From Escherichia coli (lineage in GTDB: Bacteria > Pseudomonadota > Gammaproteobacteria > Enterobacterales > Enterobacteriaceae): a stretch of DNA of 64,000 bases. This document shows positions 2,021 to 7,173 of this stretch, piece by piece. The notes beneath the pieces are model-generated. The model was not told the origin of the DNA, did no database searches, and worked only from the letters and a program-made list of their open reading frames with translations. The position numbers and the translations under genes were made by a program. The stretch's first letter is position 1. Every line of letters begins with the position of its first letter. The stretch lies in assembly GCF_003019035.1 (NCBI RefSeq), contig NZ_CP027447.1, one strand, 5' to 3'.

Positions 2021-2062
2021 CACGAGTCGGTGCAGTTGCCCGCTAACCATCGAAACGCGAGA

Positions 2063-2473
2063 TTAAACGCCCGGCAATACACGCCGGGCAGCTTCTGCCA
2101 GAAACGCACTTCTGTTGGCGTAGTCTGGGTTATTGCGCACGTAGGTATCAATCTTGTTCAGTAACCTTTTCGGCATCGTAATATTGATACGTTCAGCCCG
2201 ACCTTCGAACTGATTCATATTGATATCCACCAGCAACCATTGCCCGCCAATAAAGTCCTGCGCACGCTGGACCAGATGTGTTTCCACAGAGCCTGGAAGC
2301 GGCAACTCTTCATCCATCTCGCATAAGGTTTCGAAGTGCGCGACCAGTGCACTTCGCGCATCCTGGAAAGCGTTGTCCAGCGTATCACCAGCAAAATAAC
2401 AGCCTGGAACATCAGGGAAAAAACCGCTGGCGCTGCCGTCAGGATCACTGTGGATATAGGCGGGATAAAACAT
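2063..2473 (-). CDS. hicB: HicB-family antitoxin (N-terminal HicB fold plus C-terminal ribbon-helix-helix)
   Basis: 136 aa. The N-terminus MFYPAYIHSDPDGSASGFFPDVPGCYFAGDTLDNAFQDARSAL is typical of HicB. The C-terminal NRSAFLAEAARRVL is RHH/CopG-like. It starts 16 nt downstream of a HicA-like gene. Confidence 0.85.
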   Translation of the reverse strand: MFYPAYIHSDPDGSASGFFPDVPGCYFAGDTLDNAFQDARSALVAHFETLCEMDEELPLPGSVETHLVQRAQDFIGGQWLLVDINMNQFEGRAERINITMPKRLLNKIDTYVRNNPDYANRSAFLAEAARRVLPGV

Positions 2474-2489
2474 ATTGCCTCCTGAAATT

Positions 2490-2675
2490 TTAAAATGTTA
2501 AACCAGCCTGACGCCCAATTTGCGCCAGCGTACCGGGCTTAATATCTTTTTTAGGGTGCGGAACCGTCACCAGACCCGGATGAACAGGGTGGCGGAACTG
2601 ATGATGACTGCCACGGGTTCGAATATGTTCCCAGCCATGCTGCTTCAGGATGGCGATCACGTCTGCACTTTTCAC
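2490..2675 (-). CDS. hicA: HicA-family mRNA interferase toxin
   Basis: 61 aa, MKSADVIAILKQHGWEHIRTRGSHHQFRHP...VTVPHPKKDIKPGTLAQIGRQAGL. This is the HicA signature (GSH..., TVP.H.KD..GTL). The toxin-first gene order is typical of hicAB. Confidence 0.85.
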   Translation of the reverse strand: MKSADVIAILKQHGWEHIRTRGSHHQFRHPVHPGLVTVPHPKKDIKPGTLAQIGRQAGLTF

Positions 2676-2950: not shown

Positions 2951-4489
2951 TCAGAACAGCCCCAACGGTTTATCCGAGTAGCTCACCAGCAGGCACTTGG
3001 TTTGCTGGTAATGCTCAAGCATCATCTTATGGGTTTCGCGTCCGATGCCCGACTGTTTGTAGCCGCCAAACGCCGCATGTGCCGGGTAAGCGTGATAACA
3101 GTTGGTCCACACGCGCCCGGCCTGAATGCCGCGCCCCATCTTATAGGCCAGATTACCGTTGCGGCTCCAGACACCCGCGCCCAGGCCATATTGCGTGTCG
3201 TTCGCCAGCTCCAGCGCTTCTTCCATAGTTTTGAAGGTGGTCACCGCCAGCACCGGACCAAAAATTTCTTCCTGGAACACGCGCATATTATTCTGACCAA
3301 ACAGAATCGTCGGTTCGAGGTAGTAGCCGTCTTTCAGTTCGCCTTCCAGCAGCTTGCGCCGCCCGCCGGTGAGCACGTCTGCGCCCTCTTTTTTACCAAT
3401 ATCAATGTAGTTGAGGATGGTTTCCAATTGCCCGTGCGAAACCTGCGCCCCCATTTGCGTCACGCTGTCGAGCGGGTTACCGCTACGAATGCTTTCGACA
3501 CGGCGGATGGCGCGTTCCATAAAGCGTTCGTAGATAGACTCCTGCACTAAAGCACGGCTTGGACAGGTGCAAACTTCGCCCTGGTTAAAGGCAAACAGTG
3601 CAAAGCCTTCCAGCGCTTTATCGAAAAAGGCATCTTCTTCATCCATCACATCAGCAAAGAAGATATTTGGCGACTTGCCGCCCAGTTCCAGGGTTACCGG
3701 AATAATATTTTGCGTGGCGTACTGCATAATTTGTTGGCCCACTTCCGTTGATCCGGTAAACGCCACTTTGGCGATGCGTTTCGAGGTCGCCAGATATTCG
3801 CCAATTTCCCCACCAGCGCCGTTAACCACGTTCACCACGCCCGGCGGCAGTAAATCACCGACGATTTCCATTAGCAGCAGTACAGAAAGCGGGGTAAGAC
3901 GTGCGGGTTTCAGCACCACACAGTTGCCCGCCGCCAGCGCGGGAGCCATTTTCCAGCTCGCCATCAGCAGCGGGAAGTTCCACGGAATAATCTGCCCCAC
4001 CACGCCTAACGGTTCGTGGAAGTGATAAGCCACAGTTTCGCTATCCACTTCACTAATACCGCCTTCCTGTGCCCGGATACACGAGGCGAAATAGCGGAAA
4101 TGGTCAATCGCCAGCGGTACATCAGCAGCACTGGTTTCGCGAATGGGTTTGCCGTTATCCCAGGTTTCAGCCGTCGCTAACAGTTCAAGGTTTTGTTCCA
4201 TTCGATCGGCAATCTTAAACAGAATTGCCGCGCGATCCTGCACCGAGGTATGTGCCCATTTATCTTTCACTTTATGCGCGGCATCCAGCGCCAAATCGAT
4301 GTCTCGTTTGCCCGAAGACGCCACTTCGCACAGCAGCTGCCCGGTCACCGGCGTCAGGTTCTGGTAATACTCGCCGTCGGCAGGGGCTACCCACTCGCCG
4401 CCGATAAAGTTGTCATAACGGGCTTTTAACTTAAGAGGAAAACCATACTCGCCGGGCTTAATCTGTGCTGAAGGGGGATTATTGGTCAT
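2951..4489 (-). CDS. aldB: Aldehyde dehydrogenase B
   Basis: 512 aa counted from [34 protein letters not shown]. Aldehyde dehydrogenase motifs are present ([23 protein letters not shown]). The 30-codon upstream extension in the ORF track was rejected. Confidence 0.95.
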
Positions 4490-4596: not shown

Positions 4597-5892
4597 TTAC
4601 AGCGGATAATGCGCGAAGTACACGGCTTGCTGGTCATTAATTTTCTTCTCTTGCGCAAACCCTTCTTTAACAATTGTCCGTAAATCAGCTCGAGCCGTAT
4701 TATCAGAGACGCCCAGGCTCGCGCTAATTTCAGCAACTGTGTACTCTTTCCCCGGATTGGCGAGCATCACATTCAGGAGCGTTACCTGGCGCGGATTCAG
4801 GCGTTTAAGCACACCAGAGCTAAACAGCACACTATCGAGTTTTGCGCTTCGTTGTGTAATTTCATCGATATGCTGCTGCCAGTTTTGCAGAGCACGTTTA
4901 ATGACACCCGCCTGATATTCAAGGAAATAAGTCAGATCCATACCATCTGATTCAGTGTACTGGTAGCTGGCGGCATATTTGACCGGTGCAGCATGAAGCA
5001 AACGGCTGATGGAAATATATTTAAAGACATCGTAGCCCGATTTCAGCATATACCAGTAAAACAGCGCCCGACTGGTGCGCCCGTTGCCATCCCGAAACGG
5101 ATGTTCATGGGCCAGCATAAAATGCAGAATGCAGGCACGGACCAACGGATGAATATACCCTTCATGGCTGTTTAACCACTGGCAAACTTTTTCCAGCCGT
5201 TCCGGTAACAATGCCGCAGCGGGCGGTTGATGCACTATACTGCCATCATAGTCGGCGATCACAACATCATCTGTTTCACGAAATTCTCCCGGACGATATT
5301 TCGCGTCATTGATTCCACCCATACCAATGGCATGTAACTGGCGAATAAGCGCAGGTGTCAGCGGTTCTGCGAGTAAGTGCGGAATTTCCGCCATCAGCCG
5401 GGCATTTCCCGCAATCATATGCTCGTCTTCAGTGCGTGGCGACCGCCCTGTTTCCAGCATTTTTCTCGCCACCAGCGTTGTAGTATTCGCACCCTCCAGC
5501 TGGGAGCTGGTGATCGGCTCTTCCAGGCGTAACTGGCTTAACTCGGCTCCGGCCCCGCGTAACCGTTCAGTCTGATCTTTCAGCGCCAGCGCGGTAGCAC
5601 GTTTGTCGACAAGCTCGCACGCTTCTGCAATCACCGGGGTAATGTTGAATCCGGCCTGTTCACCCGCTTCATTGCAATAATTAATTCGTTGGATCGCCGC
5701 GTTGCGCGCCAGACGGGTAAGCGTCCACGCCACATCGACGTTTTCTCCTTTTTTGATGCGGTACTGCAACTCATCAAAAGGCAGATAACGTCCTTTTTCA
5801 TCGGTAACCCGGTTAAAGCGCAGGTGGGCCAGGAGTTCCTCACCCGATAAGTGTGATAAAGGAATAAGTCCGGGAGGTGATTTGATAGCCAT
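4597..5892 (-). CDS. Fic-domain protein (putative AMPylase) with N-terminal inhibitory-helix motif and C-terminal winged-helix-like domain
   Basis: The canonical Fic motif [12 protein letters not shown] lies at about residues 263-274. An (S/T)xxxE(G/N) motif, SSQLEG, lies at about residues 129-134, as in class II autoinhibited Fic proteins. The C-terminal segment [28 protein letters not shown] looks HTH-like. Confidence 0.85.
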
Positions 5893-5897
5893 GTGCT

Positions 5898-5976
5898 TAT
5901 CTCAAAAAAGCGCAATATTGAGATAGTGTATAGCAGGAAAGAGAAACTATCTCAAAAAAAGCAAGTTTTGAGATAG
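5898..5976 (-). promoter_or_regulatory. Twin palindromes in the fic leader with a putative sigma70 promoter between them
   Basis: TATCTCAA-N12-TTGAGATA lies at 5898..5925 and CTATCTCAAAA-N8-TTTTGAGATAG at 5947..5976. On the minus strand, TTGAGA (5950..5955), a 17-nt spacer and TATACA (5927..5932) resemble -35/-10 elements. The proximal palindrome also covers the GAGA Shine-Dalgarno-like sequence. Confidence 0.4.
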
Positions 5977-5979
5977 TTG

Positions 5980-6006
5980 AAAAAGCGGCTGACAACTCGC
6001 CAGCCG
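5980..6006 (-). terminator. Rho-independent terminator downstream of yiaY
   Basis: On the minus strand, CGGCUG-(9 nt loop)-CAGCCG is followed by CUUUUUC, 15 nt after the yiaY stop. Confidence 0.6.
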
Positions 6007-6021
6007 TTGTGGGAATGATGA

Positions 6022-7173
6022 TTACATTGCGGCGCGATAAATCGCCACAATTTCTTCGTGAGTTGCCTGGATCGGGTTAGTAAAGCCACAGGCATCTTTC
6101 AGGGCATTAGTCGCCAGTACCGTGAAATCTTCTTCTTTCACGTTCAGATCGCGTAGGCCTGCCGGGATATCCACTTTCTTCGCCAGTTCACGGATGGCGT
6201 TAATGCAGGCTTCAGCCCCTTCCGCGTCATTTTTGCCTGTCACGTTCACGCCCATAGCAGCAGCACAGTCACGCAGACGCGCAGCGGCGACTTTGCTGTT
6301 GAATACCTGAACATGCGGCAGCAGAACAGCATTACATACACCGTGTGGCAGGTTGTAGAAACCGCCCAGCTGGTGCGCCATCGCATGAACATAACCCAGA
6401 GAAGCATTATTGAACGCCATACCGGCGAGGAACTGGGCATAAGCCATTGCTTCACGCGCTTTAGCATTGCTGCCATCTTCAACGGCTAACGGCAGATTTT
6501 CGGCAATCATGGTCACCGCTTTCAGTGCGCAAGCGTCAGTGATCGGCGTGGCGGCAATAGAAACATACGCTTCGATAGCGTGCGTTAAGGCATCCATACC
6601 CGTTGCGGCGGTCAGTGACTTCGGCATACCGATCATCAGAGAGGAGTCATTGACAGAAAGCAACGGAGTTACATGTTTATCAACAATCGCCATTTTGATA
6701 TGACGCGCTTCGTCAGTGATGATGCAGAAACGGGTCATTTCAGAGGCCGTACCCGCCGTGGTATTGATGGCGATCATCGGCAGCTGCGGTTTTGCAGAGC
6801 GGTCAACGCCTTCGTAATCGCGAATATCGCCGCCATTGGCTGCCACCAGCGCAATACCTTTTGCGCAGTCGTGCGGAGAACCACCGCCTAAGGAGATCAC
6901 GCTATCGCAATTATTTTCTTTAAGTAATTTCAAACCTGCGGCGACGTTTTCCGTGGTGGGGTTAGGTTGGGTGCCATCATAAATAACGCTAAAAATATTG
7001 CGTTCTTCCAGTGCTTTTTGCACATCACCCGCCATACCCAATTTCGTTAACATATTGTCGGTGACAATTAAGGTACGGGTAAATCCATAATCTGCCATCA
7101 TATTCATTGCATCATTCAATGAATCAGCACCAATAACATTCACGGAAGGAATAAAAAAGGTTGAAGCTGCCAT
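6022..7173 (-). CDS. yiaY: Iron-containing (group III) alcohol dehydrogenase YiaY
   Basis: 383 aa, [19 protein letters not shown].... It has Fe-ADH motifs ([11 protein letters not shown], and HAMAHQLGG with metal-binding His residues). Its position between aldB and selB matches K-12. Confidence 0.9.

Follow-up and report, generated by a model that had tools for sequence, protein, structure and literature searches.

A predicted self-repressing Fic enzyme with paired operators, and its deletion from the aldB-yiaY locus of Escherichia coli K-12

Between the metabolic genes aldB and yiaY, some Escherichia coli genomes carry a gene for a Fic family protein that strain K-12 lacks. What does this gene do, what controls it, and how did the two forms of the locus arise? 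We analysed these questions in 64,000 nucleotides (nt) of E. coli contig NZ_CP027447.1 (assembly GCF_003019035.1), hereafter the window. The gene, here called fic, lies at 4597..5892 on the minus strand and is an intact open reading frame (ORF) with an ATG start, encoding 431 amino acids (aa; the coordinates include the stop codon); RefSeq labels the product 'Fic family protein'. We favour, with some reserve, a model in which a self-inhibited AMP-transferase with a C-terminal winged helix-turn-helix (wHTH) domain represses its own promoter and becomes toxin-like upon release. The parts of this model are not equally firm: autorepression by the protein's own wHTH is highly probable from the sequence pattern described below, while a role in phage defence, argued from relatives, falls somewhat short of an even chance.

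Paired operators upstream of fic

Two palindromes, which the initial annotation of this locus (made from the sequence without database searches) did not contain, lie directly upstream of the gene. The first, O1 (5898..5925), is a perfect palindrome of the form TATCTCAA-N12-TTGAGATA that stops 5 nt short of the ATG and spans the predicted transcript start, the 5' untranslated region and the ribosome-binding region. Exactly 50 bp further upstream, O2 (5945..5978) is an 8+8 palindrome of the O1 type (5948-5975) with its arms extended to 13 nt, and the predicted -35 box falls within its promoter-proximal arm. The chance expectation for TATCTCAA-N12-TTGAGATA in the window is 0.02, and no further copy of the palindrome was found there, even at 2 mismatches. 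The predicted sigma-70 promoter (5927..5955, minus strand) consists of a -35 box TTGAGA (5950-5955; 5/6 consensus positions), a 17-nt spacer and an extended -10 element TGcTATACA, which we read from the sequence as a hexamer at 5927-5932 with its TG at 5934-5935. A consensus promoter scanner missed it because the hexamer ends in a base other than T. Among divergent E. coli alleles and Escherichia albertii, no substitution falls in the operator arms, O1 or the -10 box; the substitutions in the promoter region lie in the O2 spacer, in the stretch from O2 to the -10 box, upstream of O2, or at the single base before the ATG.

The same layout recurs in homologues. We fetched 80 homologous loci and re-derived their start codons; the site scan covered 81 related loci, or 82 promoters with the window. 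A TCAA-N12-TTGA core with palindromic flanks occurs 6.97 times per kb in the 160 nt upstream of the homologues, compared with 0.105 times per kb in the other 913 kb of these loci, a 66-fold enrichment. At least one such N12 site is present in 58 of the 81 loci. Two sites are present in 33 of the 82 promoters, window included, and their spacing is 49-52 bp in 32 of these 33; the proximal site starts at -26 to -36 in 45/82. Perfect 8+8 palindromes make up 43 of the 92 sites and come in eight half-site variants (TATC-, TGTC-, CATC-, CATT-, CGTC-, CACC-, TATT- and AAAC-TCAA), with the two outermost arm positions co-varying symmetrically (72 observed vs 43 expected, and 76 vs 57). A -10 element of the TGnTA type recurs between O2 and O1 across the family, and paired sites of this kind are found with homologues whose genomic surroundings are unrelated, ranging from Escherichia through Pseudomonas to cyanobacterial metagenome-assembled genomes (MAGs).

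The predicted recognition helix of the wHTH (residues 397-409) carries a family-conserved S-D/Y-N-T-A. In six homologues (L039, L057, L058, L062, L065 and L069) the recognition helix lacks N-T-A, and all six (6/6) also lack such a site. No other DNA-binding gene was found co-travelling with the fic unit in the homologue contexts inspected. Because the protein's own wHTH is the sole DNA-binding domain that co-travels with the sites, and does so as a single-gene unit, autorepression is the natural reading of this arrangement.

Some homologues depart from the N12 pattern in other ways. A subgroup from fluorescent Pseudomonas has upstream regions without the N12 palindrome (L036, L039, L041, L045, L047, L049, L057, L058, L062, L063, L065, L069, L071 and L076). 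L039 and five others of this subgroup have an altered recognition helix (CSYAEAAS, CSHSEAAS or CSYGAA), and several members carry other inverted repeats, such as CTCAAAAACTC-N8-GAGTTTTTGAG, which may be a diverged operator. Four further loci (L051, L056, L064 and L068), with the recognition helix ISENTARKDL or IAENTARKDL, have a single, tighter palindrome, AACTCAATTTT-N2/4-AAAATTGAGTT, immediately ahead of the start codon in place of the N12 layout.

We also considered other explanations for the palindromes themselves. O2 as a second terminator of yiaY was rejected, as the palindrome travels with fic to unrelated contexts and yiaY has a G+C-rich terminator of its own (5986-6006). O1 as a translation-blocking RNA hairpin found no support either (-9 kcal/mol, z -1.2 against shuffles). 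A 47-aa ATG ORF (5952-6095, minus strand) overlaps O2 together with the 3' end and the terminator of yiaY, and is probably mechanical.

A self-inhibited enzyme with an additional N-terminal subdomain

The initial annotation described a stand-alone Fic protein of 431 aa, and the ORF, a Pfam Fic match (PF02661; aa 177-281, E-value 1.1e-19, 71 bits against a cut-off of 24) and the catalytic motif all agree with it. This motif (aa 264-275; nt 5068-5103, minus strand) fits HxFx(D/E)GNGRxxR, with H264 as its histidine. In an alignment of 31 diverse homologues, 40-75% identical to the window protein, the H, F, D, G, N, G, R and R of the motif are invariant. So are all six residues of the inhibitory-helix motif S129-S-Q-L-E133-G134 (SSQLEG; aa 129-134, nt 5491-5508, minus strand), which had likewise been picked out upstream of the Fic motif; it fits (S/T)xxxE(G/N) and sits at the end of a predicted helix (114-132). 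By the definition that Engel and colleagues reportedly gave in 2012, a class II Fic protein has its (S/T)xxxE(G/N) on a helix that precedes the Fic motif within one chain and comes without a separate antitoxin gene; the Glu of that helix is said to contact the second Arg of the Fic motif and to block productive binding of the ATP gamma-phosphate. SSQLEG shows this arrangement: Glu133 and the catalytic His264 are 131 residues apart on the same chain (the equivalent spacing is 125 in SoFic and 129 in CccR, two relatives discussed below), and in a sequence alignment Glu133 pairs with the inhibitory Glu (EG) of human FICD.

What had been called an HTH-like domain at the C-terminus proved to be a real wHTH (approximately aa 365-427; nt 4612..4800, minus strand), delimited by the predicted structure and the family alignment. 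Its fold is clear in the structure model, though Pfam PF21248 (SoFic-like C-terminal wHTH) gave no match; relatives score 19.7-26.3 bits with this family, against a cut-off of 27. The gene is under purifying selection, with a ratio of nonsynonymous to synonymous divergence (dN/dS) of 0.07 against E. albertii that is low in all three protein regions. From these motifs, the product is predicted to be a class II (self-inhibited) Fic AMP-transferase of the Fic+wHTH architecture that acts without a partner.

The absence of a visible antitoxin gene, noted at the outset, extends to the homologues. Between the fic stop codon and aldB lie 107 bp, whose small ORFs are just mechanical and which leave no room for a small antitoxin like AS1 (described below), and no conserved small ORF was found downstream of fic in the 80 loci. 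The largest downstream cluster is a syntenic Pseudomonas neighbour.

The N-terminal part of the protein had been suspected of being unusually long. The extension is real, because Glu133 lies about 60 residues farther from the N-terminus than its counterparts in SoFic (E73), CccR (E63) and EcSofic (E70), and it is conserved family-wide. Residues 1-85 (nt 5638..5892, minus strand) form a small alpha/beta subdomain with helices 17-26, 39-45 and 52-66 and a hairpin 68-73/79-82. These three helices and the beta-hairpin are modelled confidently both in the full protein and alone (predicted local distance difference test, pLDDT, 88). In the structure models, a long helix (aa 86-111; nt 5560..5637, minus strand) then runs towards the inhibitory helix. 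The first ~85 residues are conserved in a large family of 430-460-aa proteins from Enterobacterales, Pseudomonas, Cellvibrio, Vibrio, Thiothrix and cyanobacterial MAGs, and Y36, R45, W56, R63 and D96 are invariant across this family.

Outside the family we found no match. A Pfam search and a profile search of the PDB returned nothing for the N-terminal subdomain, and a phmmer search against 1.84 billion representatives yielded family fragments and no true case of the subdomain in another architecture. A few large repeat proteins that scored with it were matched spuriously through Ig-like or HYR repeats. Phage-encoded relatives were just distant matches starting at about aa 123, hence without the extension. 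A few database proteins (P0097, P0007 and P0080) contain parts of the Fic protein fused to aldehyde dehydrogenase or other domains, probably through errors of gene calling or assembly where fic meets aldB.

The statement that DNA-binding Fic proteins are poorly characterised is outdated: structures exist for CccR, CbFic2, SoFic and EcSofic, and targets for CccR, CbFic2 and SoFic. Foldseek matched our model to Dde_2494 (4RGL), CbFic2 (8CIL), a Mycobacterium marinum protein (7CB8) and CccR (7XUX), over some 330-360 residues that leave the first ~85 unmatched. CccR (YPK_0951 of Yersinia pseudotuberculosis), one of the best structural matches, shares with the window protein the Fic+wHTH layout and the logic of autorepression. 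It autorepresses through inverted repeats near the -35/-10 region, which requires dimerisation and places the HTH domains about 70 Å apart; its target is FtsZ, and it is secreted by the type VI secretion system (T6SS), poisoning FtsZ in non-kin cells and acting as a repressor in kin cells (PMC9755527). Deletion of CccR is also reported to alter the expression of other genes. Like CccR, the window gene has an inverted-repeat operator over its own -35/-10 region. However, CccR (380 aa) has no counterpart of the ~85-residue N-terminal subdomain, its identity to the window protein in structural alignments is ~18-20%, its operator is one AGATAATCAT-N26-ATGATAATCT element rather than two TATCTCAA-N12-TTGAGATA sites 50 bp apart, and it lies next to a T6SS effector cluster, a context the window gene does not have.

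SoFic (SO_4266/MloA of Shewanella oneidensis; 3EQX/3ZCN) is 16-18% identical and also lacks the extra subdomain. It has been validated as a defence system consisting of one gene (Millman et al. 2022), and in vitro the wild-type enzyme acts mainly as a deAMPylase. The dimer helix of SoFic is L28-L50; as a dimer, the protein binds the 100 bp immediately upstream of its gene, and it AMPylates EF-Tu (bioRxiv 10.64898/2026.07.09.737422). The PADLOC SoFic hidden Markov model matches our protein strongly (aa 96-428, E-value 1.3e-43, model positions 30-351 of 361), and the alignment to the NCBIfam SoFic model pairs aa 97-305 with SoFic 31-234. By this alignment, helix 86-111 would be the positional equivalent of the N-terminal dimerisation helix of SoFic and CccR. 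EcSofic (from E. coli H397) has a 47-aa antitoxin, AS1, encoded downstream (PMC12249575), whereas the window gene has no equivalent; the 47-aa ORF at 5952-6095 equals AS1 in length but lies upstream of fic.

CbFic2 (CBU_0822 of Coxiella burnetii) is the top Foldseek match (E-value 1e-11) and shares the Fic+wHTH fold without the N-terminal extension. CbFic2 is both an AMPylase and a deAMPylase, DNA binding and dimerisation act as the switch of its activity, and it has been put forward as an effector that acts on the host by modifying histone H3 (PMC10628234). Its abstract reports no operator palindromes, and CbFic2 is a possible model for how operator occupancy could be coupled to catalysis. 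The best sequence match to the catalytic core is human FICD/HYPE (4U04, 6I7G; E-value 3e-12), whose inhibitory Glu is the residue aligned with Glu133; FICD is a eukaryotic endoplasmic reticulum membrane protein with tetratricopeptide (TPR) repeats, without a wHTH and with a different dimer interface. The N-terminal subdomain marks a subfamily separate from SoFic, CccR and CbFic2.

A resident gene deleted from K-12

In the window, fic is flanked by aldB (2951..4489) and yiaY (6022..7173), both on the minus strand. The initial annotation took these two genes to adjoin in K-12 and read fic as an accessory single-gene insertion. In K-12 MG1655 they are indeed adjacent, separated by a 164-bp spacer without fic. 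Of 5426 complete E. coli genomes, 1572 (~29%) have fic at this exact site, always on the chromosome; carriers include O157:H7, O55:H7 and Nissle 1917. The accessory status therefore stands, but the K-12 spacer and E. albertii speak for deletion rather than insertion.

The segment missing from K-12-type E. coli is 4603..5970 (1,368 bp), with 1 nt of microhomology (G) at the junction. The K-12-type spacer retains the last codon and stop of fic (TTACAG; window 4597-4602) and 8 nt (AGATAGTT; window 5971-5978) from the outer arm of O2, which is 13 nt long; the partner of this arm is within the missing 1,368 bp. In the K-12 spacer (locus L091, 2616-2650) the scar reads ...GGGTTACAG|AGATAGTTGAAAAAGCGG..., with TTACAG joined directly to AGATAGTT. 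Since an 8-nt match would arise by chance with a probability of about 1.5e-5, and the intact O2 belongs to the gene unit in other genera, we conclude that K-12 carries a deletion scar. In E. albertii, fic occupies the same site beside aldB, and its synonymous divergence (dS) from the E. coli gene is 0.33, vs 0.39 for aldB. This similar dS, together with the low dN/dS, indicates that fic is an old, selectively maintained resident and no recent insertion. The empty K-12-type allele is thus what a 1,368-bp deletion left of a gene that was already resident, and most lineages of E. coli no longer have this gene.

Insertion by a mobile element was considered and rejected: no repeats, integrase or insertion sequence (IS) scars flank the segment, and the logic of the junction favours deletion. 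Some E. coli, such as an O102:H6 genome (L082, NZ_CP163448.1, 4091-5001), carry an IS200C copy in the aldB-yiaY spacer, in a fic-deleted background. A second accessory difference adjoins the locus: downstream of aldB, the window has a HicA/HicB toxin-antitoxin pair and a GH127 glycoside hydrolase (~2060-2675, minus strand) where K-12 has yiaW and yiaV.

The contexts of the homologues are varied. In E. coli the neighbours of fic are aldB, yiaY, selB and hicAB, with no mobile-element or defence genes next to it, and no T6SS, secretion or immunity genes were found beside fic in E. coli or in the homologue contexts inspected. Klebsiella homologues (L083-L085; 48% identical) follow a DUF927 primase-like gene of a P4-like-looking satellite with an integrase, HTH_17 and Bro-N, and Salmonella homologues (L086-L087; 70-71% identical) lie in an integrative and conjugative element (ICE; AcaB, TraG-D_C) beside an AAA ATPase and S8 peptidase pair. 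Homologues also occur on plasmids of Klebsiella, Aeromonas and Vibrio. On the other hand, 16 Pseudomonas loci have a conserved chromosomal neighbour in common. The mobile-element contexts favour a role in conflict, either defence or toxin, whereas the chromosomal contexts of E. coli and Pseudomonas do not. In Pseudomonas amygdali and P. syringae (L035, 9193-10332; L088, 9466-10614), the fic homologue lies beside, and convergent with, an iron-type alcohol dehydrogenase gene whose product is 70% identical to E. coli YiaY, an arrangement that may be fortuitous or may date from a transfer of both genes together.

How fic may act

If the protein works as its parts suggest, it would dimerise through the long helix preceding the inhibitory helix, by analogy with SoFic, EcSofic and CccR, and the two wHTH domains of the dimer would bind the half-sites of one 28-bp palindrome. 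The half-site centres are 20 bp, or about 68 Å, apart, a distance that would suit a widely spaced dimer such as that of CccR. Occupancy of O2 over the -35 box and of O1 over the transcript start and ribosome-binding region would then repress the gene and keep protein levels low. Meanwhile, Glu133 on the SSQLEG helix would block productive ATP binding and probably also support deAMPylation, as for FICD and SoFic. A signal that relieves either the repression or the autoinhibition would lead to AMPylation of an essential cell protein and to growth arrest. DNA binding, repression, dimerisation, catalysis, autoinhibition and target AMPylation are all argued here by analogy with the relatives above. 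Phage defence by abortive infection seems the most likely setting for such a switch, although it is the weakest link in the chain.

Several observations weigh against this model. The N12-pattern site is missing from 23 of the 81 related loci, some of which have other spacing or repeats, and O2 also scores as a weak terminator-like hairpin. Identity to the characterised enzymes is 16-21% in structural alignments, with phmmer E-values of 1e-11 to 6e-7. The protein is not a canonical SoFic orthologue, as it scores 39.4 bits with the NCBIfam SoFic equivalog (NF046030) against a cut-off of 550, and phmmer places it at E ~5e-7 from the SoFic and EcSofic chains. In E. coli, fic lies between two metabolic genes, outside any defence island or mobile element, and appears to be vertically inherited, which would suit a housekeeping function no less than defence. 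We found no literature linking aldB, yiaY and fic.

The strongest competing explanation, which we nevertheless regard as unlikely, is that fic encodes a housekeeping enzyme that reversibly AMPylates and deAMPylates a host protein during stress or growth transitions, in the manner of FICD with BiP or SoFic with EF-Tu, with autorepression setting its dose and no role in conflict. Its chromosomal position, vertical inheritance and strong purifying selection would suit such a function, as would the lack of mobile-element or defence neighbours in E. coli and the conserved neighbour in the 16 Pseudomonas loci. The predominance of deAMPylation in wild-type SoFic in vitro points the same way, since Glu133 aligns with the FICD Glu needed for that activity. 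Yet about 70% of E. coli have lost fic without obvious consequence, and a housekeeping role sits poorly with homologues in a P4-like satellite, an ICE and plasmids and with the strong PADLOC match to SoFic.

It is improbable that fic is an addiction-type toxin, or an interbacterial effector secreted by a T6SS like CccR. The shared layout and autorepression of CccR, its place among the best structural matches, and the homologues on ICEs, satellites and plasmids speak for it. However, no secretion-system or immunity genes flank fic, there is nothing that a single chromosomal copy between metabolic genes could stabilise, and fic differs from CccR by its N-terminal extension and by both the sequence and the spacing of its operators (TATCTCAA-N12 vs AGATAATCAT-N26).

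We give as little credence to the protein being mainly a transcription factor, its Fic domain a nucleotide-sensing or self-modifying module and its output other genes with the palindrome: two well-conserved operators, a conserved recognition helix and the CccR and CbFic2 reports cited above would fit, but the window holds no further palindrome, the catalytic and inhibitory motifs are invariant in the family, which argues for a working enzyme, and single-gene units moving between unrelated contexts would lose their regulon.

Within the model of a self-repressed, self-inhibited enzyme, the N-terminal subdomain could be a sensor or target-selection module, in which a signal such as a phage protein or metabolite alters dimerisation, freeing the operators and displacing Glu133; we offer this as a speculative suggestion with perhaps little chance of being right.

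Autoregulated Fic+wHTH enzymes are already known, so the novelty of fic is not one of kind. It lies in a widespread subfamily whose N-terminal subdomain is unmatched elsewhere, whose distinctive dual-operator layout is conserved in Gammaproteobacteria and beyond, and which has no antitoxin, as well as in the deletion scar in K-12. The product is a relative of enzymes known to poison growth or to defend against phages, and it is present in well over a thousand of the complete E. coli genomes, in which standard defence-annotation tools will probably call the gene 'SoFic' even though it is not orthologous to SoFic and contains an additional domain. A precise, cheaply testable hypothesis comes from the conserved dual operator: one 28-bp site, one promoter and one protein, with TATCTCAA vs TATGAGAA as the arm-mutant pair for the operator half-site, and K-12, with its clean scar, is a natural isogenic background. 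If the sensor reading were true, fic would be a single-protein, self-amplifying growth-arrest switch, passing from deAMPylase to AMPylase as it is derepressed, and the family would reveal how a Fic enzyme links binding to DNA with repression of its own gene and relief of autoinhibition.

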